Assembly (NCBI GenBank): GCA_964016885.1 | Contig: OZ024742.1 | Location: forward strand, 146,940,001-147,004,000 | Length of the DNA: 64,000 bases | Direction: 5' to 3' | DNA from: Eledone cirrhosa | Lineage: Eukaryota | In this document: positions 6,806 to 59,810 of the stretch, one piece after another | Position numbering within the stretch: position 1 is the stretch's first letter | How the letters are laid out: every line of letters begins with the position of its first letter | Notes under the pieces: generated by a model | The model's database searches: none | What the model saw: the letters and a program-made list of their open reading frames with translations, nothing else | What the model was told of the DNA's origin: nothing | Translations under genes and position numbers: made by a program

Positions 6806-9800
6806 ATCATCATCATCATCATCATCACCGTTTTACGTCCATTCTTCCACGCTAGCATGGGTTAGACGGGTTGTCCTGTTGTGTGCAGTGTCTGGTCGGC
6901 TGACCATGCCTTGCTCATACAGGAACTGATCTGGCTTGATTTCTACAGCTGGATGCCCTTCCTAACACCAACCTCATTTACAGTGAGTGCTGGGTGCTTT
7001 TTCGTGGTGCCTACACGTCCACTTTACAGTGTGGGCTGGGTGCTTTTTTGCCGTGGCACCTCCACGACCACCTTGCAGTGGGGGGTGTGGGGGCATATTG
7101 TTTATATGCTTCAGCATGTACCCATGGGAGGTCGGGTACTCTGTATTACTGCGTGACGCCAGAAGTCACGGTCGTGTGTCATTGTCTTTGAGAGGTGTAG
7201 TTGGGTAAGGTCGGCTTTTATCACCTCATCCCAGGTCATCTTGGGTCTCCCCACTCCGCGGTTTCCATCAACTTCTAGTGCTCTGCACCTTTTTATGCAG
7301 CTGTCATCCTTCATACGCATCACATGTCCATACCAGCGCAACCGCCTCTCCTGCACACAGCATTTGATTCCTCTTATGCTCAGTCTCTCTCTCAATTCAT
7401 TTATGCTTTGTCGTTCACGTATATTACTGTTACACATCCATCGGAGCATGCAGGCTTCGTTTCTCTCTAATCTACGTAAGTCTTCCACCTTCAGCGCCCA
7501 GGTCTCACTACCATGCAACATCGCTGTTCGGATACACGCATCATACAGTCTGCCTTTCATTCTGAGGGAGAAGCCTTTTGCAGCTAGCAGTGGTAGTAGT
7601 TTCCTAAACTTCTTCCATCCCGTTCTTACCCTAGTTATTGTACTTTCTGAACACCCACCTCCGTTGCTAATTCGGTCACCTAGGTAGCAGAAGCTGTCTA
7701 CTGTTTCTACAGGGCCCTCCCAGAGATTGGTGGTACTTGTTTCCTGTGGCTGTTTGCTGCTTGCTGTTTCAGCACAGCTGCTGCATGTGAATCCTACATT
7801 CTTAATTAAGCTTCCTGAGATCCCGCTACATCTCTTGTGTACCCATTGTTTGCATTTGGGGCAGAGAATGGAGTTCCTACCTACACCTTTCCTACATACT
7901 GAGCAAGGCCATTTCCCTGAGGGGATCTGGGTTCTGTTTTCTCGTCTACTTACAAGGACCTTAGTCTTTGTCATGTTGACTTTGAGACCCTTTCTTTCTA
8001 GTCCCTGCTTCCAGGTTTGGAATTTATTCTCTAGTTCTACCATAGATTCAGCTATGAGTGCGAGGTCATCAGCATACAGGAGTTCCCATGGGCATCCGGT
8101 CTTAAACTCCTCCGTTATTGCCTGCAGGACTATGATGAACAGGAGAGGGCTAAGAACAGAGCCCTGGTGGACCCCAACCTGTACGCTAAATTCCTCGCTA
8201 TACTCATTGCTAATCCTAACTTTGCTGACTGCTCCCCTATACATGGCTTGTACCGCTTTCACAAGCCATTCATCTACTCCTAGTTTTCTAAGAGCCCACC
8301 AGATTACCGCACATGGAACTCTGTCAAAGGCTTTCTCAAGGTCGACAAATGCCAAGTAGAGTGGCTTACTTTTAGCTAGGTACTTTTCCTGTAATTGCCT
8401 CACAAGGAAGAGGGCATCAGTGGTGCCTCTTCCTGGTACAAACCCAAATTGCATCTCGTCTATTTTCACCCGGTCCCTAATCAGCTGTGCTATAACTCTT
8501 TCTGTTACTTTCATGACCTGGTCCATCAACTTCATACCTCTATAGTTTCCTCTATCTAGTGCATCGCCTTTACCTTTGTAGCAGTTGACAATGATGCTAC
8601 TGCACCAATCTTTTGGTATGGCCCCTTCTAGTATTACCTGGTTAACAATACGTGTGGTTATAGTGTGACCTACAGACCCAGATGCCTTCAGCATCTCGGC
8701 AGCTATCCCCGATGGACCGGTTGCCTTCCCCATCTTCATATCTCTGATTGCCTTACTTACTACGCTGCCGCTGACTTGTACTGCTGGTCCCTCTATAGGG
8801 TCTACTTGGGGTAGGGTCTCTTCTTCCCATGCATTCTCCTCATTTAGTAATCTATCATAATGACTCTTCCATGCATCTTTCTTCTCAGCACTTGTGAGGG
8901 CAAGCTCACCTTTATCATTCCGGATACACTTCTCTCCAATGACATCACAACTATCTCTGACACACTGCCTCGCAATCTTGAATACCTCCTGTTTCTGGTC
9001 CTCACGTTGTAAAACATGCTTGAATTTTCTATCCTCTGCTTCCCTCCTAGCTAAGTATACTTGTCGCCTAGCTTCCCTCTTGGTCTCTATGTAATGTACC
9101 CTGCTCCCCCCGTTCTTCCATTCTTTCCATGCCTGTCTCTTGGCCTTGACTGCTTCATCTACCTTATTGTTCCACCACCAAGTCACTCTCCTCCTTCTTG
9201 AGGTCTTACTCCAGCCACAGACCTCGTCCGTCGCCTCTAGTAAATTATTTTTTAGGAACTCCCAGTTCTCTTCTACATTAAATGTCAGTATCTGTTCTTC
9301 TTTACTGTCGTAGGCGTTGAGTAAAATATCTTTAAATCTGTTACTGGTTGAGGGGACTTTCAGCTTCCAGATCTTTCTTCTCCAGGTTGGCCTCTGTTTC
9401 AGGGCTCGTCTAGTTCTGACCGTGAGATCGCTGACAACTAAGCTATGTTGGGATGTACATTCCTCACTAGGGAAGGCTTTTGTGTTTACGACCGTCCATC
9501 TGTCACGTCCTCTGATGAGGATAAAATCTAACTGAGTAGAGTGCTCCCCTGATCTATAGGTGATCAGGTGGTTGTCGGGTTTTTTAAAGTTTGTGTTACA
9601 TATCGACATGTCATTGGCGTCGCAGAATTCTAGAAGTCTGAATCCTTCCTCATTCCTTGTGCCAACTCCATGGCCTCCATGTACTCTATTGAAGCCGTCG
9701 CTGTGTTTACCTACGTGTCCGTTAAAATCTCCTGTGATGATTAGGAAGTCATTGTCGTTTGTTAGAGCAGTAGTGTGCATTAGGGACTCGTAAAACCTAT

Positions 9801-10036
9801 CCTTAAGTTCGTCTGGCAGCCCCGATTGGGGTGCATAAGCTGATATTATTGTGGTAATTGTCTTATTCAGGACTAATCTGAGTTTAATGATTCTTGCATT
9901 TACCCTGTACACTGAGATTACTTTATCTATCCACTTGTCAGCTAATAGTATACCTACACCACCCATCCCATCGTCATTTCCCACCCAGAAAAATTTGTAG
10001 CACTGACTTTTTACTACAAGGACTCTAGCAGACTCT
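6806..10036 (-). mobile_element. RTE-clade LINE, slightly 5'-truncated, with (ATG)n 3' tail
   Basis: Single EN+RT ORF, 3' UTR and (GAT)n tail; homology to the 11790-15150 copy extends to about 10036 (ESARVLVV). Confidence 0.95.
7111..9984 (-). CDS. RTE ORF: APE endonuclease + reverse transcriptase + PHD-like finger (957 aa, uninterrupted)
   Basis: SAYAP, GDFNGH, LDFIL, SQH (EN); [33 protein letters not shown] (RT); RLRWYGHV and GRP C-terminal RTE motifs. Confidence 0.95.
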   Translation of the reverse strand: MGNDDGMGGVGILLADKWIDKVISVYRVNARIIKLRLVLNKTITTIISAYAPQSGLPDELKDRFYESLMHTTALTNDNDFLIITGDFNGHVGKHSDGFNRVHGGHGVGTRNEEGFRLLEFCDANDMSICNTNFKKPDNHLITYRSGEHSTQLDFILIRGRDRWTVVNTKAFPSEECTSQHSLVVSDLTVRTRRALKQRPTWRRKIWKLKVPSTSNRFKDILLNAYDSKEEQILTFNVEENWEFLKNNLLEATDEVCGWSKTSRRRRVTWWWNNKVDEAVKAKRQAWKEWKNGGSRVHYIETKREARRQVYLARREAEDRKFKHVLQREDQKQEVFKIARQCVRDSCDVIGEKCIRNDKGELALTSAEKKDAWKSHYDRLLNEENAWEEETLPQVDPIEGPAVQVSGSVVSKAIRDMKMGKATGPSGIAAEMLKASGSVGHTITTRIVNQVILEGAIPKDWCSSIIVNCYKGKGDALDRGNYRGMKLMDQVMKVTERVIAQLIRDRVKIDEMQFGFVPGRGTTDALFLVRQLQEKYLAKSKPLYLAFVDLEKAFDRVPCAVIWWALRKLGVDEWLVKAVQAMYRGAVSKVRISNEYSEEFSVQVGVHQGSVLSPLLFIIVLQAITEEFKTGCPWELLYADDLALIAESMVELENKFQTWKQGLERKGLKVNMTKTKVLVSRRENRTQIPSGKWPCSVCRKGVGRNSILCPKCKQWVHKRCSGISGSLIKNVGFTCSSCAETASSKQPQETSTTNLWEGPVETVDSFCYLGDRISNGGGCSESTITRVRTGWKKFRKLLPLLAAKGFSLRMKGRLYDACIRTAMLHGSETWALKVEDLRRLERNEACMLRWMCNSNIRERQSINELRERLSIRGIKCCVQERRLRWYGHVMRMKDDSCIKRCRALEVDGNRGVGRPKMTWDEVIKADLTQLHLSKTMTHDRDFWRHAVIQSTRPPMGTC

Positions 10037-10870: not shown

Positions 10871-11789
10871 CTTATTATTTATTATTATTGTCCCACCCTT
10901 GCAAGCAGGGAAAAGCGGAGGTAAAATGATGATGATGATGATTATTATTATCATTATTATTATTATTATTATAAGTACTTCATTTTCTTGTCTCTCCAAC
11001 ATCTCTGGTCCATTTACCTATCGGTATTTGTATTAAACTTCCCGTTTAATTTCCCATAATTATGGTCGAATCTGTAGGACCCTCAGAAAAATTAATCTGC
11101 TCGTTAACTTCCTTCAGGAACCTTCCTTCTTCCCCCCTCTGTCTCCCCCATACATCATTTATATGCTTACATGTTCTCTCTCCCCCTCCATTTTTCTCTC
11201 TCTCTCTCTGCAAATATAAAATAAATCTGTCATGAGTTGATGAACTCAGACTCTGTTGAATCCTTACTGTCGCTGAATTGTCGTGTTGAGAAATGTAATG
11301 TATTTTCACTTCATTTTCTTGTCTCTCCAACATCCCTGGTCCATTTACCTATTTGTATTAAACTTCCCGTTTAACTTCTCATAATTATGGTCGAATCTGT
11401 AAGACCCTCAGAAAAATTAATCTGCTCGTTAATCTTCCCATTTCGCTCACCACCACCCCCTGCCCCCACACGCCACCATTACTATTTGGTCCAATCATAA
11501 TTTAGCGGCTTATAATATGTTTCTCTTCCCAATCTCTTTCACAAAACCACCGCCTCGGCTATTACTCCCTCCTCGATATGTCAGATGGACTACGGGATTT
11601 GGAGTGTCTGAAGAATGTGAACACTCAATGTCAATGTCAAAGATAAAGATAAATTCACCTGCTGTTGCCAGACAAGAATGCAAGGACTCCGCTTTATTTC
11701 AGACACAGATGGCTAACATAACCCCATCCTCCTCACCCCTCCCTGCGCCTCCAACCCATCCCTTCCATCCACCCACCAAACGAAATCCA

Positions 11790-14700
11790 TAATTTCGGAG
11801 TTGGTACCATGAATGTAGGCACCTTAAAAGGTCGCTCAAATGAGGTTGTAGAGATGCTTGAAGATAAGGAAGTTGATATTTGCTGTGTTCAAGAGACTAG
11901 GTGGAGGGGTGAGTCTGCTAGATCCATTGTGGGTAAAAAACGATGCTATAAACTTTTCTGTGTAGGAAATGAAAATGGGCTGGGTGGAGTAGGAATCATT
12001 TTAGCAGAAAAATGGGTAGATAGGGTAATTAAAATAAGACTAGTCCTAAATAAAACTACTGTGACAATAATATCCGCTTATGCCCCCCCAATCTGGACTA
12101 CCTGGCGTTATAAAAGACAGATTCTATGAGTCGCTAATGCTCAATACCTCCCAAATAACCGACAGTGACTACATAATTATTGCTGGTGACCTAAATGGAC
12201 ATGTTGGACAACATTGTGATGGCTATGATGGAATCCATGGAGGCTATGGGTTTGGTAATAGAAATGAGGAAGGCTTCAGAATCCTGGAATTCTGTGACGC
12301 TAATAACATAACTATCTGTAACACAAACTTCAAAAAACGAAACAATCACTTGATCACCTATAGATCAGGGGAACACGCCAGTCAGATAGATTATATCCTT
12401 ACCAGAAGACGGGATGGAGTGTCTGTCGTAAACACTAAATCCCTCCCCCGTGAAAAATGCGCCTCCCAACATAGCCTCATAGTTAGTGACCTCATAGTCA
12501 GGACTAGACGTACTCGACAACAGAGGAGGACTACCCTGAGGAGAAGAATATGGAAGTTAAAGGACCCCACAGCCAGTAACAAATTTAAAAGCATATTACT
12601 TGATGCTTTTGACAGTAAGGAAGAACAATTAGAGTCGTACAATATAGAGGAACAGTGGGAATTCCTGAAAGTTAACCTACTGAAGGCAACAGATGAAATC
12701 TGTGGCTGGAGCAGACCTATAGGGAGGAGGAGAGTAACTTGGTGGTGGAACAGTAAGATGGAGGAGTCAATCAAGGCCAAAAAGCAGGCTTGGAAAGTAT
12801 GGCGGGATGGGGGAAGTAGAGAACATTATCAAGTGGCCAGGAGAGAAGCTAGGAGACAAGTGTACTTTGCAAGAAGGGAAGCAGAGGAAAGAAAGTTCAA
12901 GCATGTTCTACAACGTGAGGACCAAAAACGTGAGGTGTTCAGGATTGCAAGACAATGTGTCAAGGAAAACTGTGATATTGTCGGGGAGAAGTGTGTCCGT
13001 AATGATGATGGTGTACTTGCCATCACTGATGCTGATAAGAAGGTAGCTTGGAAGTGTCACTACAAGAGACTACTAAATGAGGAGAATAAATGGGAAAAAG
13101 ATAGTCTGCCCCAAATTGATCCAATAGAGGGACCAGCAGTGCAAGTTAAAGGTAGTATAATAAGTAAGGCAATCAAAGATATGAAGACAGGCAAGGCAGC
13201 TGGGCCTTCGGAGATAGTTGCTGAAATGCTGAAAGCATCTGGAATGGCGGGACACACTATGGTCACCCGGATAGTAAACCAAGTCATACAGAATGGGGTC
13301 ATACCAAATGACTGGCATAGCAGCATCATTATTAACTGCTACAAGAGTAAAGGAGATGCGCTAGATAGGGGAAAGTATAGAGGCATAAAATTGGTTGACC
13401 AGGTCATGAAGGTCACAGAAAGAGTTATAGCGCAACTAATCAGAGAGCGAATTGATCTAGATGAAATGCAGTTTGGGCTTGTGTCAGGTAAAAGTACCAC
13501 AGACGCCCTTTTCCTTGTACGACAACTACAGGAGAAGTACCTAGCTAAAGGTAAACCCCTATACTTAGCTTTTGTTGACTTGGAGAAAGCCTTTGCCAGA
13601 GTCCCCCGCTCCATTATCTGGTGGGCTCTTAGAAAACTAGGTGTTGATGATTGGCTCGTGAGAGCTATACAAGCCATGTACAAAGAAACAGTCAGCAAGG
13701 TTAGAATTAACAACGAATATAGTGAAGAATTTAGCGTAAAAGTTGGTGTTCATCAAGGTTCTGTCCTTAGCACCTCCTATTTATTATTGCCCTTCAGGCT
13801 ATAACAGAGGAGTTCAAGACCAGCTGCCCATGGGAACTTCTATACGCAGATGATCTAACTCTCATAGCTGAATCGATGGCTGAACTAGAGAAGAAATTCC
13901 AAACATGGAAGCATGGCCTAGAATCAAAGAGCCTTAAAGTTAACTTGTCTAAGACTAAAGTTCTAGTATGTAGGAAGGAAAATAGGGCACAGGTGCCCTC
14001 TGGGAAATGGCCATGCTCAGTGTGTAGGAAAGGAGTAGGCAGAAATTCAACATTATGTCCCAAATGCAAATTATGGGTATATAAAAGATGTAGTGGGATC
14101 ACAGGTAAGCTAACTAAGAATATAGATTTTATATGTGGCCAATGCTCAGGTGCAATAAGTAGCAAGTGACCACAAAATACTAGCTCCTTCTATTGCTCAG
14201 ATGGTTCTATAGAAATAGTGGACACTTTCCGCTACCTGGGTGACAAAATCAGCAGTTGTGGAGGGTGCTCCGAAAGTACAGTAGTCAGAGTCAGAACAGG
14301 ATGGAAAAAGTTCAGAGAGCTTATACACTGTTGGCCTCAAAAGGTTTCTCTCTAAAAATGAAAGGCAGATTGTATGATGCCTGTATACGAACAGCAATGC
14401 TACATGTCAGTGAGACATGGGCTTTGTGTGCAGAGGATCTGCGCAGACTGGAGAGGAATGAAGCATCCATGCTCCGTTGGATGTGTAATAGTAATATACG
14501 CGAACGGCAAAGCATAAATGAACTAAGGGAGAAATTGGGAATAAGAGAGATCAGATGCTGTTCACTCGAGAGAAGACTACGTTAGTATGGTCACGTGATG
14601 CGCATGAAAGAGTGCAGGGCGATCAAAATTGATGGAAGTTACGGAGTAGGCAGACCCAGAAAAACCTGGGATGATTTGATAAATTCCGACCTTACACACT

Positions 14701-22054: not shown

Positions 22055-22097
22055 TAGTTTTAACGTTTCAGACACTAGTCCTTCGTCAGAAGATAGA
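22055..22097 (-). ncRNA. Minimal hammerhead-like motif (weak stem I)
   Basis: Minus strand: CTGACGA-a-ggac tagt gtct-GAAA-CG-TT; stem I pairs poorly. Confidence 0.45.
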
Positions 22098-33889: not shown

Positions 33890-36800
33890 TACTATTTATG
33901 CACTTCAATCTTACTATTTATGCACGCAAGGAAACTGCTCTCAAAATGATAGTTTTTAGGACAGTTTCCAATTCTACCCGAAAACCAATCCAATTGTCAC
34001 AGAAAGAAATTGAACTGGTTTTCAAAAATTCAATGAATAATATTTCATTCATTCAAAGAAGCAAACTCTTTGGGAGTATTTCGGTACTCATGAAGGATCA
34101 ATTGACGGCCCAAAATTACTCTGTGTCGCCAATTGTACCCAACCTGTATACCTTTTTCCCTACATACATGGGGAAAATGACACAAAAGATTAGAATGGTA
34201 GATACTGTGCGGCTTCATCAATTTTTATGAAGACAAAATACTTTCAGTCGGAAAGTCCCCCAGAGATGTGTTCAATGGGACTAGCGTTGAAGTTCTGCAA
34301 ATGAGCTCAGAGCGAATAGCTATGATCCCACAACGTGTACTCCTGGACGGAATCACCTACATAAACTTTTCGGTTGAGGGTAGGCGGCCTTCATGTTACC
34401 ACTGCTTTAGCAGGGGTCACCTGAGGACTTCCTGTCCTAAATTAATGAGTCAAAAAAAGACTCTTCTGCCAACACCCATCAAAATAACACAACCACGAAC
34501 ACCACCACAACAACAACAACACCAACACACAAAAATAACCACAACAAACACAGTCCCACCCAACCCCACTCCACCTAAAACCACTGCAAAATCACATACA
34601 GACACAACAGCTCCCCAAGACATACCCATCCCCAATCACACAGACGATACAACAGATGAGGCTATCTCGCCATCACCCAGTGAAGACGAGGGAGAACCCC
34701 ATCGCTCGAAAAGAAAGAAAAGACATCACAAAAGCAAAAAACCAGCAAACACTACCACAAACATACAACCACCAACATAAACAACAAAAACATCACAAAC
34801 AAAACCCCCACCTCCTGAAAACAAAATACCTACAACAAAACGAAAGCACACACAAGAACTACAGACAAAAATAAACACAACACAAGAAAATTACACTTAC
34901 ACTTACATAAACACTGAAAACAAAACACTAATGGAGACCATCACGAACAACCCTTCGGTTTTCACCGAAGGGAAAACTTTCGCCCACTCAATTAAAAATA
35001 ACAAAAAAACTGAACCTAAAACTGATTAGGGTCCCTATACAAACTTATAAGTCCCTAAAAGAAACATTTGAAAAGGATGTGGGGAATTCCTGCGTGAAAC
35101 CACTTAACCGCGTCCTTCTCAAATGTCTCCCCACCCCAGACACCCCCATCCCACCAGACCCCACCCCACCAAAGATCTCCATCCCCACCCCGCCGGAACC
35201 ACCACCCACCCAGACAACCCCTCCAACACCCCCATGGAAATCGTGCAGCCTGGCTGACGAAGGGTGAGTGATCTCTTTTCCTCTTTTAACTTTTCAGCAC
35301 CAACATAGCCAATATAAGAGTTGGATGTGTGAACGACGCGGCCTGGGGATGCTCTGGAAACAGGGCAAACTCTTAAACGACCTCAGGTCGCGCAGTATGG
35401 ATGTAGTAGCCATTTGCGAGTCCAGGATCCACAGCGAGCGACAGCTAGCCCCCATCTTCGACGACTTTGAGATCTACGCATCTCTCTGTCGGCCAGGGGG
35501 TGGGGGCGGGGTTGCCGTTTTGCTGTGAAAACATCTGGGCCTCGTAACACAGACGGTACATCTGGACCCGGAGGGTCGACTGGTGGTCCTAGACGTTGAC
35601 GGTAGTGAAGGTGGAGCCTTCAGGCTAGTGGCTGCATATGCCCCATCCAGGACACCGCGGCCAGACTTCTTCAAACGTCTAGAGACTTTTCTGGGAACGT
35701 CCCGCTCCTTGCTTTTAGTGGGGGACTGGAATGGAATCCTAGATGCACGTTGGGACTATGTGGGAGCATGTCCCGATAAAGGGGGGTGTAACAGCCTCAA
35801 ACAGTTAATAGACCGATTTGACCTGGCCGATAGATATGGACTAGATTTTCCGACTGTGCCACTGTGGACGTGGACTAATCTCAGCGGAACATCTAGATCG
35901 TACCTAGATAGGGTTCTAGTTAGAAATAAGGATAGGGACATGTTAAGCTGTTCACAAATGTTCATGGTTGCCTATTCAGATCACAAACTAGTGACCTGCA
36001 TGGCCAACCTTGATAGAACCCATAGCCAAGGACCCGGCTACTGGAAGCTGAACTTGTCGTTACCGACATTCAAAGCCTACAGTAGACGGATTAGCACTTT
36101 AGTTAAACAACACTTGACAGGGGCCATTGTCAACAACAGATGGTGGTACTCTCTCAAGGGGGTAGTTAGATTAGACTCGTTAGTTTTTAGTAAAGAATTA
36201 GCGTTAGATAGAAATAAAACCGAGAAGAACTGGTAGATAAAGTAGAAGAGGCAATTAGAAGTGGCAACGTAGCCAGCGTGCTAGCAACGAGAACGGCCTT
36301 GGAGCAGTTCTTCGACGCAAAGCACGAGGGATGCGTTGTCAGAAGCAAAATACGTGCTCTGGGAAACGAGGGAGCCAAAGCTGTTAGCTGGGCCCGAGTG
36401 ACGGAGGCAAAAAGTGGCAACAAGTCCACGATTCGGTCTTTGAAGGACCAAAACGGACGCGTGATACGTGAGCCGAAGCAGATGTGTGCGGCCTTTCAGC
36501 GGCACTTTGCTCAACTGTTCGGGAGGGCGGCGCGCCGGGAGGGGCTATGGATTTCGGTCCATACCTCGACGGCCTACCGCGACTCTCGGACAGCGAGACA
36601 AAGTTCTGCGAAAAGCCGATTTCAGCCGCTGAGATAAGGGACGCGCTGAGCCAATGCGGCAAACGCAAATCTCCAGGTCTCGACGGTCTACCCTACGAAT
36701 TTTACGTAGCAATGCCGGACTTATTCTCCGGTCTCCTTGAAGCGGTCTACTGCAACTGGCAACAGAAAGGGAGAATTCCCAGTTCTGTGACCTGGGGCGT

Positions 36801-38966
36801 AGTCACACTAGTCAGGAAGGACGAGAATAACGGGGATGACATAGGCAACTTCCGGCCCATAACTCTTCTAAACACAGAGTTACAGGTTTTGGCCAAGGTG
36901 TTGGCAAAGAGGCTGGCGCTTGTCGTCGAGAACCTGGTAGGAGAAGCGCAGACATGCGCAATCCCGACCAGGTCCATACACGACAACCTCCACCTCATGC
37001 GATACATCATAGAGAGAGTAGGGTGTAAACCCGGCTTCGGTGGGGCCCTGATCAACTTGGATCAGTCTAAGGCTTTCGATAGGGTTGACCATCGTTACCT
37101 GGATGCGGTGCTCGAGGCGGCAGGCTTCGGACCCGTGTTCAGGGGCTGGATTGCTGCAATGCACAACAGCAACATCTGCTCAAGGGTCAAGGTGAACGGC
37201 TACCTCTCGGAGCCGTTCCATATCACGCGAACCATTCGACAGGGATGCCCGCTCTCCTCCCTTCTGTACGTACTGACTCTCGAGCCACTACTGCGGAAGT
37301 TGGAGCTATTGCAGGGTATCCCTCTGGAACCGGGACTGCGGAAAGCGGCGTCCCCCTACGCCGAAGACGTGACAGTAATGGTGTCGAGCGCCTCGCAAAT
37401 CGAGGAAGTCGGCACCTTACTGAAAGAATACGAAAGTTTCACAGGAGCGAAGCTGAACCGGGACAAGTCCATCGGTTTGCAACTCGGATCGTGGAGAGGC
37501 AAACTGATGCCTTCCGATGGCGTCGTCGGACGCTGGACGGAAGCACCGGTAAAGCTGCTCGGGGTCTGGTTTGGTCCGGACCTCCAGGTGGAGAAGAACT
37601 GGAACGAGGTGACGGCCAAGGTGTTTGCACTCACCCAGAAGTGGGCCGAGTGAAAACTATCCTTGAAAGGTCGAGCGGAGGTGGCGAACACTTTTATAGC
37701 GTCCGCCATCTTCTACCGCTTGACCGTCGTGCCTTGTCCAGCTAAAACGCTCAACAAAATGGAGCGCGCGCTCTTCCAATTCCTTTAGAAGAGCGGGCTC
37801 CTTTGGTGAGAAGATCCATCTGCTGCCAACACCCTTCCAACGGAGGGTTGGGGATGCCGTGGCTGACGATGCGCAAACACGCGCTCAGGCTACGGCATCT
37901 CTACGTATTCCTCACCAGACAACCGGTGTGGGCCCCGTTCGTGAGGCGAGCCTTCCCACGACTCGTCTCGCTGACCGAGCTGCAGTCCTGGGTCAAGCAA
38001 AGACCGAGCGACTGGCACATCGAATGTGCTCAGGCGCTCACAGCCCTCTGGCAGGCGGACCCGGCGATCAGTGGAGACTCCACTTCGTCATTCTATAGAG
38101 GGTTGATCCGCAGCAAGTGCGACGGCGCGCTCAGTGAAACTCTAGGCGTAGAGGAAGATGAACTGGCCAGTCTGTTCGGTAGGACCTTCCGCCCGGGACC
38201 GATGGACAACTTCCAAAAGTCCCTGGCCTGGCAGTGCTACCGAGGAGCTCTACCAGTTCGAGACAAGCTCTACAGACATGGGCGCCCGGGCAGGGACCCT
38301 GAAAAAAAGATCTGTCCGAGGTGCGTGCGAGACGAAGAAACCGTCGCGCACGCATTCATACACTGCCCGGGCGTCACCGACCTGTGGGGCTATGTAGAAC
38401 GACTATTGTCGCGGGTGGGACCAATCCGGTTGACCACTGAGTCCATTGTCATGATCAAACCGCCACCCTCCTTCAAAAACGAAGGAGAGGCGGTGTTCCT
38501 TTGTGTGATAGCTATGGCGAAAGAGGTTGTATGGTGGACAAGGTTGAAAGGGCTGAGGTCAGACACCTTTCTCTCCGGCCAACAACTGATTCTTTTTTTC
38601 AAATACCACTTTGGAAGAAGAATCAGGATGGAGAGAGAGGTGCTGTACCCCAGCAAGTTTTATGAAAGGTGGGTGAAAGTGGCGGGAATGGCCCGAGTGA
38701 ATGGGCCTTCTCTCTATATCAGCCTGTAGGTTGAGGAAAAGGAGGAGGAGAGGAAAGGAGTACAAACTCTTCGTACTCCTGGAGATGAGGGTTTCACATT
38801 TTTTCGGGGGTATGTGTTACCCATATAAACTGTCTCCCCCTATTGGGGAAAATCGACTAATTTTTTAAATTGCATTTGTGATAACATTTTACACGTTTTT
38901 ATTGTATGTAAACTTCCCCCTTTGTATTTGTCCCTTTCTTTTGTGCCCCTGTGGCTAATAAAGAAA
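33890..38966 (+). mobile_element. L1/Tx1-clade LINE, near full-length, inactivated
   Basis: ORF1 with CCHC knuckle (CYHCFSRGHLRTSC); ORF2 EN (AAYAP, VGDWN, SYLDR, SDH), GPGYWKLN, KSPGLDGLPYEFY, RPITLLN, LDQSKAFDRV, RQGCPLS, YAED, C-terminal CPRC..ETVAHAFIHC; AATAAA at 38957. Confidence 0.92.
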
Positions 38967-39102: not shown

Positions 39103-39563
39103 TTATTTATTTACCACAGGGGCGTACAAAAATGGGACATTACAAGACGTGACGGCGGGGGTTTTACATAAAATCTTTAACAATGATAAATAACAATAAA
39201 CTATATAAAAATAAAACAAGTGAAACCCGCTACTGCGGGGTTTTTTTAGACCCCATGGATAGAACAACCCTCAACACCAGGAACACGTTTTGTAGGTGTT
39301 CCCGTCTTCCCTCTGTTTATCATCCTCAACCTACGGGTTTATATACAAAGAATGGCCCATTCACCCGGGCCATTTTTGCCACATTCACCCACAGTTCAGT
39401 GAATTGGGTGTAGCACCTCTCTCTCCACTCTCACCTTCCTTCTGAAGTGGCACTTATAGAAGGGTATGAGTTGTTGTCCGGAGAGAAAGGCCATAGCCAC
39501 CAGACAGAGGAAGACCGCCTCTCCTTCATTCTTAAATGAGGGCGGCGGGGTGATCCTCACGGG
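39101..39563 (-). mobile_element. 3' fragment of a related Tx1 subfamily, tail-to-tail with the main copy
   Basis: PPPSFKNEGEAVFLC...FLSGQQLI...REVL homology; 3' UTR cccctgtgg.aaataaa. Confidence 0.85.
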
Positions 39564-39723
39564 TGATAAACGGAAAAAATGAAACGAAATTTCATTTCTC
39601 ACTCTTAGTACGGCTGTTACTTAAATATAAGTATGTATACGTACATACATATATGCTCAGCCGTTAATATGCATAAGGAATGTTTATACTTTCAGACGCT
39701 CAACCATCTGGCAGGAAGGTATA

Positions 39724-39764
39724 CGTTGCTGACGATAGCTAATAAGCTTGAAACTAGTAGAGCG
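39724..39764 (+). ncRNA. Hammerhead ribozyme, copy 1 (stem I closing pair mismatched)
   Basis: cgttg-CTGACGA-t agct aata agct t-GAAA-CTAG-TA-gagcg. Confidence 0.7.
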
Positions 39765-40145
39765 TTCCTTTGTCAGGGTTGAACAAATGAGCAACGATGG
39801 TTGCTAGACACTACGGCTTAATACGGGATGTTTGTTTACAAACACACCGAGCATTATAATAAATGTTCGGTAAATCCATACATACATATATATATGTGTG
39901 CATGTATGTATATATATATATACATACTACTGTACGTCTGTATACATATATGTATGTACGTGTACATACTTATATTTAAGTAACAGCCGTACTAAGAGTG
40001 GGAAATGAAATTTCGTTTCATTTTTTCCGTTTATCGTTTTCGGTGCACCCAGCCGATTAACCCACTCGATATGCAAATTGGGCTACTCAGCCGTTAATAT
40101 GCATAAGGAAAGTATATACGTTCAACAATCTGGCAGGAAGGTATA

Positions 40146-40186
40146 CGTTGCTGACGATAGCTAATAAGCTTGAAACTAGTACAGCG
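40146..40186 (+). ncRNA. Hammerhead ribozyme, copy 2 (stem I intact)
   Basis: cgttg-CTGACGA-t agct aata agct t-GAAA-CTAG-TA-cagcg; predicted GUA cleavage after 40181. Confidence 0.85.
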
Positions 40187-40450
40187 TTCCTTTGTCAGTG
40201 TTGAACAAACGAGCAACGATGGTTGCTAGACACTACGGCTTAATACGGGATGTTTGTTTACAAACACACCGAGCATTATAATAAATGTTCGGTGAATCCA
40301 TACGTACATATATATGTGTGTACATGTATGTATATATATATATACATACTACTGTACGTCGGTATACATATATGTATGTACGTGTACATACTTATATTTA
40401 AGTAACAGCCGTACTAAGAGTAGGAAATGAAATTTCGTTTCATTTTTTCC

Positions 40451-40499
<49 letters not shown>

Positions 40500-40718
40500 G
40501 AGAGAAATGTATATATATATATATATATATATATATTCAGAGAGACAGAGAGAGAAATGTATAAATGTATATATATATATATATATATACATTTCTCTCT
40601 GTCTCTCTGAATATATATATATATACATTTCTCTCTCTGTCTCTCTGTATATATATATATATATAAACGGAAAAAATGAAAAGAAATTTCATTTCCTACT
40701 CTTAGTACGGCTGTTACT

Positions 40719-40764
<46 letters not shown>

Positions 40765-40843
40765 GAGACAGAGAGAGAAATGTATATATATATATATGCA
40801 CACACACATATATACTTACACACAGATATACAACAGAAATGCA

Positions 40844-40893
<50 letters not shown>

Positions 40894-46564: not shown

Positions 46565-49500
46565 AACAAGTGCAGGCCAGAGAATTGTTCTTCCTCCTTC
46601 AATCTATGGTTTCCCTCGCTTCTACAGTGAGTGCTTTCAAAATTCGATGACTGTGGTTCGACACATGGGAAAGCCATCTTATTTCATCACGGTAACAACT
46701 AACCCTAACTGGGATAAAATAAAAAAATAGTTTGCACCATGGTGAAGAACCTAGAGACCGTCCTGATATTTGTGCAAGAGTCTTCAAGATCAAGTATGAC
46801 AGCCTCATGGGTGACATACTGAAAAAATTGTCCTAGGAAAGGTTGTGGCTCATTTTGCTACAATAGAGAGGCAGAAAACGAGGCCTTACTCATGCTCATA
46901 TTCTTCTGATAATGGCTGAAGATAGCAAGCCCAAAACTGCTGATGCCATTGATCAGGTAGTGTACTGTGAGATTTCTGATAAAGAGACCAATCCAATTCT
47001 GCATAAGATCATCACATCCTGCAAAATTCATGGCCCATGTGCACAAGCTAATATGATGTGCTCGTGTATGGAAGGACTAGAAAACAACGCCATTGCTCAA
47101 AAAGTTATCCCAAGGCATGCAGACAAACCACATTTGTTACCAAAAATTCCTTTCCAGAGTATCGAAGAAGGGATAGACAGCATGGTGGTCACACCCATAC
47201 AATCCAACATAAAGGTCAAGAATTTACTGTTGATAATCGTTGGATTGTTCCATACAACCCTTTCCTCTCATTGAGATATCAGTGCCACATCAATTGTGAA
47301 GTTGTCCACAGTGTCAAGGCTGTTAAGTACTTATATAAGTACATCACAAAAGGATCAGACAAGATCACTTTATTGATTAAGGATGATCAAGGAAATTGTG
47401 TCCATTCCCAAAATGAGATTGAGACCGATATCAATGCACGGTACATCTCAGCCAGTGAAGCATTCTGGAGAATCTATAAATTTCCATTACATCATCGAAA
47501 ACCACCAGTTGAAAAGTTGCCTTGCCATTTACCTGGGGAACAAATGGTCATGTATAAGTGAGGGCAGGAAGAAAGTATTGTTTCTAGGGGACAGCCAATG
47601 ACTAAGTTGACGGAATATTTTCAACTGAATATTAGAGACCCACTGGCACAAAACATATTGTATATTGATATTCCTAAACTTGGACAAACAAAAGGTGGCA
47701 AAGAAGAAAAAAGGGACATCTGGATGGTGATCAACAATTTATGAGTGAATCTCTTGGACGCATTCCAACAGTATCTCTCACTAGACATCAATCTGAATAA
47801 TATTACCTCAGGATTATCCTACATCACAAGGCTAGGTCAACTTCAGACAAAGATTTGAGGACAATTGAAGCAGTTGAATTTCCAACATTCCAAGAAGCAT
47901 GCAGGAAACTTGGTCTGTTAGATGATGATGGAGAAAAAGACAAAGCTATGGAAGAGGCCTCATCCATTACGCTTGGTGCTCAGCTGCGGGAGATCTTCTG
48001 CACCATTTTATTGTACTGCATGCCAAATGACCCTCTTCAGTTCTGGGAGAAATGGAAGAATTGTCTTGCAGAGGATATCATGCATGAACGTCATGAGCAA
48101 GACATGTCGAAGCAAACCATGCAGATTGTTCTACAGAAGATCCAACAAAGACTTCAACATGTCTTGGACATTCATGCCAACTATGGACTTCCTCGACCAG
48201 ACCCAACTATTGTTGCCATACCAGAAATCAACAGGGTTCTTATGGCAGAAACTGATTTCAATACACACCAACTGCAAGCAAACATAAATGAACTTCAGCC
48301 AACATTGAATCCTGAGCAACTGGGTATTTTTCACAAAGTAATTACCTCTGTAAATGAAAATGAAGGCAGAATGTTCTGCTTGACTGCAAGTGCAGGTATA
48401 GGAAAGACCTATGTCATAAACATCCTATTGGATTACCTCTGATCTAAAAAAAATTGCACTTGCCACTGCCATATCTGGAATAGTGCAAGATTCCTCTGTG
48501 ACTGCTGAATCAATTTGCTTCTTCACAAAGAGGGATGACACAGATAAACTTATGCAGCAAGCTGACCTGCTAATCATTGATGAGATAGGTATGGGACATA
48601 AGCATATCTTTGAATGCCTTGACAAGAGCTTCAAAGATGTTCGAGATTGAAAAAAGCCATTTGGTGGTCTAACAGTATTACTATCTGGTGACTGGAAGCA
48701 AATTCTTCCAGTTGTACATCATGCTGCTAGACCACAAATAGTTGAGGCAACCATCAAGAGATCCTATCTCTGAGACTATGTGGAAACCATGGAGATGACA
48801 ACCAATCAACAGTTAATTAATGCAGAGGATTCTGATGAAAGACAGTTTGCAAACTACCTTCTTGATGTGGGAAATGGTAACATGTAGGTGCATTCACAAT
48901 TCTTCTGCCAAATGAACTTTGTCTGGAATATGGTAATGTGTCTGGACTGTGTGATTTTGTGTATACAAATCTTCCAGGAAACTACACAAACCCACTATGA
49001 CTTGCAAATAGAGCCATTATCACTCCAACAAATGATACAGCAAGATTGGTGAATGAGTTCATGGTCAACAAGTTCCCTGGTCATGAAATAATCTACAGAA
49101 GCACTGATACAGTAGATAATGAACTGCAATATCCAATTGAGTTCATCAACAAACTTACCCCATCGGGCTTCCCAACATACATACTTAAACTGAAGAAAGC
49201 CAGTTGCATCATGCTTCTGAGAAATCTGGATCCTCTAAACGGGCATTGCAATGGTACACGCTACATCATCAGTTTACATAATCATGTAATTGAAGCTGAA
49301 GTGGCATTGGGTCCCAATGCTGGAACAAGGTTGCTAATACCAAGGATACCACATGTATCTCAAGATCTTGAGTTCCCTTTCACCTTTACTCGCAAGCAAT
49401 TTCCTGTCAAACAAGCCTTTGCCCTTACATGCAACAAGGCACAAGGGCAGACATTTGAAAAGATAGGTGTATATCTACCAACACAATTCTTCTAACATGG

Positions 49501-58932: not shown

Positions 58933-59810
58933 ATACTTGGGGAGGGTCATATTTGTGTAATATTGCCAGAATTAATAACAGAACACACTCACTGTTTGGT
59001 TGGTTTTCGCTTCTCGCTTCTGTGTCTTTTATATCCGTAATTTAACTTACTTGGTCCTCAATGTTGCCATTGACTGACCGACGGTCAAAAATAATACAGA
59101 TACAATATAGACAAACACATATATATAGTTTATCATAAATCTTTCGTTGCACATCTGCAACATCGTCAGTGGTGCTATATTTTCCTCCTGTTGTATTGTA
59201 TGTCTACGCCATTTTTATTCAGTCCAATGAATGGAATAACAACAACACCCAAACAAACAACACTGACCTAAGAGAAGTATAAATAAGTAAATAAAATAAA
59301 ATAAATAAATAAATACATACACAAGCACAATAACAACAAGCACATAAACACACACTAGTCACCCATCACACAGCAAACAAAACACTATACACACACGTAA
59401 ACACATGCGCAAAGAAGACAAAATAAAATAAACAAACAAGCAAATAAATAAATAAATATATAGACAGACTGAATAAAAATGGCGTAGACATACAATACAA
59501 CAGGAGGAAAATATAGCACCACTGACGATGTTGCAGATGTGCAATGAAAGATTTATGATAAACTATATATATGTGTTTGTGTCTATATTGTATCTGTATT
59601 ATTTTTGACCGTCGGTCAGTCAATGGCAACATTGAGGACCGAGTAAGTTAGATTACCGATATAAAAGACACAGAAGCGAGAAGCGAAAACCAACCAAACA
59701 GTGAGTGTGTTCTGTTATTAATTCTGGCAATATTACACAAATATCACCCTCCCCAAGTATAACAATATTTGTTTCGACACACGATTTCATATAAAAAACC
59801 TCGCAAAACT
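58927..59810 (+). mobile_element. Truncated Penelope-like element with inverted 5' pLTR
   Basis: 59226-59282 encodes NEWNNNNTQTNNTDLREV* (end of the GIY-YIG ORF); 58927-59223 is an inverted copy of about 59468-59768; hammerhead cores at 59163-59169(-) and 59522-59528(+). Confidence 0.9.

Follow-up and report, generated by a model that had tools for sequence, protein, structure and literature searches.

The window analysed here, a 64,000-nt stretch of the Eledone cirrhosa genome, holds a dispersed insertion belonging to a young and abundant non-coding retrozyme with 422-bp units, which was likely copied into (TA)n DNA in trans by the reverse transcriptase (RT)/GIY-YIG protein of a Penelope-like element (PLE). 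The insertion is a metazoan non-LTR retrozyme, a class already known, and its family (family A) is new. Its copies, scattered in their thousands as monomers or in tandem arrays, vary at the 5′ end, include inverted arms, and stop at two fixed 3′ points; no LTR layout was found in 64 loci. The copy number, the non-coding tandem units, and the canonical hammerhead in each unit support the retrozyme identity proposed in a preliminary description of this DNA.

The insertion consists of a short inverted arm and a main arm of tandem units (Table 1). The two hammerhead motifs of the preliminary description, with predicted cuts 422 nt apart, were both recovered. The copies are 97% identical across 300 nt at this spacing, which rises to 430 further upstream because copy 1 has an 8-nt insertion. 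The head-to-tail repeat, delimited before as 39656-40035 and 40086-40453, also stood, but the 50-nt gap between its units did not, since the intervening segment belongs to the unit. The octamer in that segment lies within a predicted hairpin and is kept in 114 of the 130 distinct units that represent all families. The cut-to-cut monomer is non-coding, with stop-free frames of at most 53 aa (trimer examined), and pairs strongly with itself (folding z = -6.8; 0 of 100 shuffles as good).

Table 1. Features of the retrozyme insertion and its target (window positions)
Feature	Position	Strand	Details
Inverted arm, 5′-truncated	39565..39655	-	Monomer positions 186-276, counted from the cut site
Main arm, 1.9 units	39656..40456	+	Monomer 327-422, 1-422, 1-275
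Hammerhead copy 1	39723..39765	+	Core from 39729; predicted cut after 39759, GUA
Hammerhead copy 2	40145..40187	+	Core from 40151; predicted cut after 40181
Cut-to-cut monomer, 422 nt	39760..40181	+	155/422 G+C (37% GC)
Unit segment including octamer ATGCAAAT (40071-40078)	40036..40085	+	Belongs to the unit
56-nt tail, end-site 1 (monomer ~219) to end-site 2 (monomer 275)	40400..40456	+	
Inverted copy of the tail of copy 2 plus flanking target DNA	40663..40725	-	GAGTAGG variant in common with copy 2
(TA)n/(GA)n microsatellite target region, broken by fold-back duplication	40457..40886	.	

The left arm, whose 3′ end is end-site 2, carries variants typical of an older 430-bp subfamily and is a PLE-type 5′ inversion. 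The main arm stops at the same site, inside (TA)n, and its tail probably sits between two RT start points. Inverted copies had been reported on both flanks, and both are present, yet the right one appears to be a local fold-back duplication and not a second insertion arm, since it combines the GAGTAGG variant of copy 2 with duplicated target DNA.

Both hammerhead motifs read CTGACGA, then T-AGCT-AATA-AGCT-T, GAAA, and CTAG-TA. A 6-bp helix I leads into an internal loop and a long extension, the 4-bp helix II stands on a U-U pair and carries an AAUA or AACA loop, and helix III consists of one A-U pair and the CUAG palindrome (ACUAGU), with a predicted duplex energy of -4.8 kcal/mol. Judged from its sequence, this is the canonical metazoan type I form in the available text of PMC4209133, with a weak helix III, a form that requires a second copy to cut well. 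The palindromic ACUAGU of the preliminary description thus holds, but its 'minimal' type does not, as a 6-bp helix I and a 4-bp helix II are canonical. The G-G mismatch that it placed at the stem I closing pair of copy 1 and the U-U in both copies were confirmed in the sequence. Copy 2 has the family majority sequence, and among 132 family ribozymes the closing pair is G-C in 129, G-U in 2, and G-G in 1, which is copy 1 of the window. A closing-pair mismatch in stem I is expected to slow hammerhead cleavage. The predicted cost of the core-open fold is 1.4 kcal/mol for copy 2 and 3.1 kcal/mol for copy 1, dearer by 1.7, and copy 1 is predicted to be weakened by its G-G.

Rfam hammerhead models had been suggested as a check. 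HH9 aligns to both copies and the loop 1 and loop 2 bases line up with it, yet the scores stay below the gathering score of 52, far below for copy 2 (19.7 bits, E 0.0097) as well as for copy 1 (11.9 bits, E 3.2), and a 7-kb Rfam scan listed no hammerhead. Rfam miRNA matches over the TA hairpins were rejected, all being under the gathering score and reflecting composition.

Variants of the 430 type occur in the left arm and where copy 1 begins, those of the 422 type in the rest of the insertion, and the cut-to-cut unit has at least 10 differences from each of 49 other units. The locus is likely an older, mosaic copy with one ribozyme probably weakened, made from a template that held more than one unit type. 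It is unlikely to be an efficient source of circles, given the private closing pair (1 of 132) and the mosaic units.

Exact matches to a 35-nt ribozyme core pattern number 7,443 in the 3.0-Gb genome, with 0 for the reversed control, and a pattern for sister-family stems gives 11,088 matches, with 1 for its control. The former count, together with the folding z of -6.8, rejects a chance origin of the motif; it also supplies the genome-wide copy number called for in the preliminary description, the copies being dispersed monomers and tandem arrays. Family A units measure 422 or 430 bp, and the tandem arrays anticipated earlier are borne out by the 36 of 64 loci with at least two ribozymes, the other 28 having one. 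Sister forms include an older 430-bp form, a 480-510-bp form, and family B, whose 465-469-bp units are ~60-63% identical to those of family A. A CAGCT-stem group, at first regarded as a 'solitary' family, turned out to represent this unit in an older subfamily.

The preliminary description had made its reading depend on conservation of the core among genomic copies, and the ribozyme stems do covary. In an alignment of 16 distinct ribozymes, 7 of 13 pairs changed on both sides and 96% of cells are paired, a level reached by 0 of 500 shuffles and compared with 25-48% in slid controls; the rows represent two or three related lineages, and the shuffle counts are not probabilities. Whole monomers compared across families have double changes in 25 of 89 predicted pairs. 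The pattern of substitutions shows that RNA structure is conserved between families. Per-position conservation within family A is not usable as evidence of selection because the loci were chosen by the core pattern.

Free 3′ ends fall at two fixed points in 147 of 164 cases when three sets of loci are pooled: 33 family-A loci taken in genome order, unranked, contribute 45 of 55, the 31 loci with the best hits 44 of 48, and the 41 loci of family B 58 of 61. The two points of family A (Table 1) have homologs in family B at 228-233 and 302, and the tails are 56 nt and about 70 nt, respectively. TA repeats directly follow 126 of the 147 canonical 3′ ends, none of the 164 ends lies within 10 nt of the predicted cut site, and the 5′ ends are scattered with no fixed point. 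End-site 1 of family A borders a TA-rich hairpin able to pull alignment ends, and family B has the same end-site 1 free of this bias. In the set of 53 distinct inverted arm pairs, 40 are canonical at both ends and the other 13 deviate at one end or both. Of the 40, 38 have one point per arm; the two exceptions include the window insertion, whose arms both stop at site 2. Target-primed reverse transcription is marked by the combination of fixed 3′ ends with random 5′ ends and inversions; the (TA)n targets mask target-site duplications.

Coding PLEs of the same genome end in the same manner. A PLE family encoding RT and GIY-YIG (L081; 938-aa open frame; copies 97% identical) was used as an in-genome control, and 28 of its 33 hits stop in (TA)n at one of two points separated by 68 nt; in a second PLE-like family most ends fall on a pair of points with 81 nt between them. 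Calling PLEs here Neptune-like or Nematis-like reflects our reading of motifs, not a tree. An atlas search with a PLE protein returned PLE-type clusters. A tail at only one end of the insertion is a PLE feature (10.1101/2021.04.23.441226), and a purified anole PLE cuts and extends both strands, with two internal RT start sites that define the one-end tail (PMC11167929). Since the coding PLEs share the two-end pattern, the evidence points to PLE machinery, in line with the mobilisation in trans by a Penelope RT/GIY-YIG that the preliminary description had put forward. No parent PLE was found in the terminal regions of 50 GIY-YIG loci, none of which is similar to the unit (50 examined among 150 matches listed; 10,596 first-look candidates).

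We hypothesize that tandem copies are transcribed and that their hammerheads would cut as dimers, via the 6-bp ACUAGU helix, into unit-length RNA, part of which a host ligase may close into circles, as in the axolotl, mussel, and coral retrozymes. The PLE protein would nick both (TA)n strands after binding a structured part of the RNA that lies 219-275 nt downstream of the cut. One strand would be primed at 219 and the other at 275, to give opposite arms with and without the 56-nt tail, and copying round circular or multimeric templates for more than one unit would generate arrays. A more specific version has, in our judgment, an even chance of being correct: the families, with at least 18,500 ribozyme copies, would record a PLE RT dimer that initiates at two set positions of a small circular RNA, then rolls round it, each target strand priming one arm, with or without the tail, to yield up to about 20 identical units in an inverted array. 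If true, the genome would directly attest both the mobilisation of animal retrozymes by PLEs and the role of the circle as template, and the 56-70-nt structured element would be an RT-recruiting signal; according to a 2020 review, no motif identifies the retrozyme helper (PMC7761336, as far as its available text goes).

The arrays bear on the template. Head-to-tail runs of units reach about 20-30 repeats. In a sister array (L194/L216, within C1:30,831,500-30,841,000), 18 of 18 complete units are identical across both inverted arms, and this unit has 6 differences from the nearest of 78 others. Six of seven units are identical in another array (L201), and a third (L200) alternates as ABAB between two units differing at 14 places. 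Mixed or quasi-periodic arrays are found at L215/L195, L190, and L219, the first being a family-B array of 31 units with a short inverted arm and quasi-periodic variants (G000:C1:5738326-5752444). Ribozyme-region differences have a median of 2 within a locus and 8 between loci (142 units). The homogeneous and alternating arrays fit rolling-circle copying of monomer and dimer circles; many arrays are heterogeneous or periodic, L200 included, and in-place duplication explains these as well, and the identity of units could partly be an effect of assembly polishing. As a separate observation, a different TA-targeting element borders the identical-unit array on both sides with its ends facing inward (L194:1860-2030 and L216:3896-4058); it has its own hammerhead with an AUAUAU helix III and is present at 8 other loci.

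A PLE-mobilised element could also have been copied from linear, multimeric read-through transcripts, with the ribozyme kept, circles not serving as template, and arrays growing by unequal exchange. This alternative, which we consider unlikely, makes the same identity call as the preferred explanation and differs solely in the template. It gains from the window itself, where arms with at least three unit types exclude a monomer circle as the template for this insertion, and from the quasi-periodic variant patterns at L215/L195, L190, and L219. PLE insertion in vitro does not need ribozyme cleavage, and uncleaved RNA is the main in vitro substrate of the anole PLE (PMC11167929). Against it, the 18 identical units in both arms would presuppose a transcript 6 kb long in which about 13 ribozymes had stayed uncut, the ribozyme stems covary between families, and circles have been shown for the retrozymes of three other animals (PMC7229834).

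It is very improbable that the unit is instead the pseudo-LTR (pLTR) of an ordinary coding PLE and its copies the 5′-truncated remains of that element. The two-end, inverted, TA-targeted pattern is the same as that of PLEs, and PLE protein hits lie near 17 of 64 loci, but head-to-tail units run to about 20-30 repeats, the hammerheads of the sampled coding PLEs differ from that of the unit, and none of 112 arms in 64 loci (29 with only 1.5-kb flanks) stands as a terminal repeat after the end of a PLE ORF. In the loci covered, the unit is not always attached to a coding Penelope ORF, the situation that the preliminary description had named as making it an ordinary pLTR. A same-strand PLE hit within 1.5 kb was seen for 11 arm sides, 8 of them across a TA run; the other three comprise a nested insertion at the 3′ end of a different element, a case with unrelated DNA in between, and a mid-ORF junction at L213. 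A pattern for other ACTAGT hammerheads gave 227 matches, of which 30 were examined; 25 are mutated family copies, and the remaining 5 neither resemble the units nor adjoin a PLE ORF. The L213 junction (L213:6438-7196) joins a retrozyme arm, short scrambled filler, and a 350-nt mid-ORF PLE fragment 91% identical to L098. Seen in 1 of 112 arms, it reflects either insertion of the retrozyme into a decayed PLE or a template switch, and in the latter case it would be a clue to the helper.

A satellite or minisatellite spread at the DNA level, with the hammerhead a chance feature or fossil, is scarcely credible: long tandem arrays agree with it, but it is contradicted by the fixed 3′ ends, random 5′ ends, and inversions, by the single ribozyme at 28 of 64 loci, and by the covarying RNA stems.

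A 265-base query from 40036 had 98-100% identity over essentially its full length in 40 of 40 scored candidates, which places 40036-40085 within the unit. On 40036-40290 only, contigs of four runs (kind unrecorded) gave variants of the family, among them changes at 40148/40184 that preserve the pair, and the same segment was present at low depth in runs of two other organisms, again as contigs, which cannot show RNA ends. RNA-seq reads across the GUA junction would not be diagnostic because tandem DNA copies contain the same junction. A snRNA-type promoter of the newt satellite 2 type (cited in PMC2220036, in the text available) was not supported, with the octamer in 0 of 9 of the genome's own U1/U2 upstream regions (300 nt); the units gave only AT-rich chance matches to these regions. 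Upstream of the U1 and U2 genes themselves (L131-L152), a TCAGTRG-like box around -58 and a TTACCTCCCTT-like box around -255 recur and are candidates for the proximal and the distal promoter element.

Hammerheads also occur in other elements. Further core motifs, in other repeat families, lie in the window at 22089(-), 25567(-), 31431(-), 56032(-), 59169(-), 59522(+), 63660(+), and 21379(+). Those at 59169(-) and 59522(+) form an inverted pair, several of the eight recur at other loci, and they are probably remnants of PLE terminal repeats. A coding PLE family (L084:3336(-) and 6 other loci) has a hammerhead 380-414 nt past the stop codon, with an AGUACU palindrome and a helix II that rests on a U-U pair; this is the family A design with no sequence similarity. 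Downstream of the ORF, the coding PLEs at L081 (7900-7950(-)), L098, and L099 carry hammerhead-like motifs with an ACCGGU palindromic helix III and the variant cores UUGAAAA and UUGAUAA, the latter of the U3-A8 type.

On the left side, the insertion adjoins an inverted piece (39330-39520) of the 3′ end of a broken LINE (34200-38729) with an RT hit, which we take to be L1/Tx1-like. Elsewhere in the window, 7111-10035 and 11722-14169 are presumably RTE-like LINEs, and 46867-49495 presumably represents Helitron-like helicase fragments.

The copying route of animal retrozymes has so far been argued from co-occurrence with PLEs and from pLTR homology, and this family is a test case. The two-site rule of PLEs is found in two retrozyme families that are ~60% identical, and PLEs with long-open-frame RT and GIY-YIG reside in the same genome, where open-frame PLE families include L081, L083, L084, and L064. 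A PLE protein active in vitro (PMC11167929) would allow a direct test of circle use, start sites, and the helper PLE. If the family is expressed as in mussel or axolotl, circular RNAs could be abundant in this animal. A literature search found no cephalopod retrozyme and no two-point end analysis of retrozymes, although the supplements of PMC7229834 and 10.64898/2026.07.22.740005 may hold such data, and the available text of the Octopus vulgaris repeat annotation paper has 0 occurrences of 'ribozyme'.

Metazoan non-LTR retrozymes include Rtz331 and Rtz353 of axolotl and units of 350-390 bp in mussel and 220-240 bp in coral (Cervera & de la Pena 2020, PMC7229834). The family described here resembles them in its non-coding tandem units, GC content below 50%, one canonical type I hammerhead per unit, and self-paired monomer. 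Its helix III, a single pair with a palindromic tetraloop, is like that of the axolotl HHR_Amex1, and the U-U in helix II is like that of HHR_Amex2; both axolotl ribozymes cut better as dimers and have circles in vivo (PMC7229834). The units here are longer (422-469 bp) and family A joins both weak features in one ribozyme; against a quoted retrozyme range of about 150-450 bp, the 422/430-bp units lie inside and the 465-469-bp sister units slightly over. The available text of PMC7229834 mentions neither fixed two-point ends nor (TA)n targets. Cleavage and circles, shown for those retrozymes, are predictions here.

A link of retrozymes to PLEs was proposed earlier (PMC7229834, PMC7761336, and 10.64898/2026.07.22.740005). 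Vertebrate retrozymes, like those here, occur as monomers, dimers, and multimers alongside PLEs and have been proposed as non-autonomous PLE partners (Li, Clavereau & Pollet, 10.64898/2026.07.22.740005). In Xenopus, 24 of 57 families matched known TEs, nearly all PLEs, and 8 of 9 dimers were without in vitro cleavage (same source, in its available text). The vertebrate evidence is co-occurrence and pLTR homology, whereas here it is the insertion signature, with no pLTR homology found. The core is also like the PLE min-HHR in its type I form, palindromic positions 15.2-16.2, and expected dimer action; the schistosome min-HHR has a 7-8-bp helix II, a 4-5-bp helix I, and a poorly defined loop 1, in contrast to the 4-bp helix II and 6-bp helix I here (PMC4209133). 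The insertions share with EN+ PLEs (Neptune, Nematis, Naiad, and Poseidon) 5′ truncation, partial tandems, and an inverted 5′ arm (Craig et al. 2021). As in EN+ PLEs, including PAc (Frangieh et al. 2024, PMC11167929), they have a one-end tail, AT-rich or (TA)n targets, and two internal initiation points. They differ from EN+ PLEs in lacking an ORF and in the tail, 56 or about 70 nt against a published 30-40 bp, with 68 and 81 nt in the coding PLEs of this genome.
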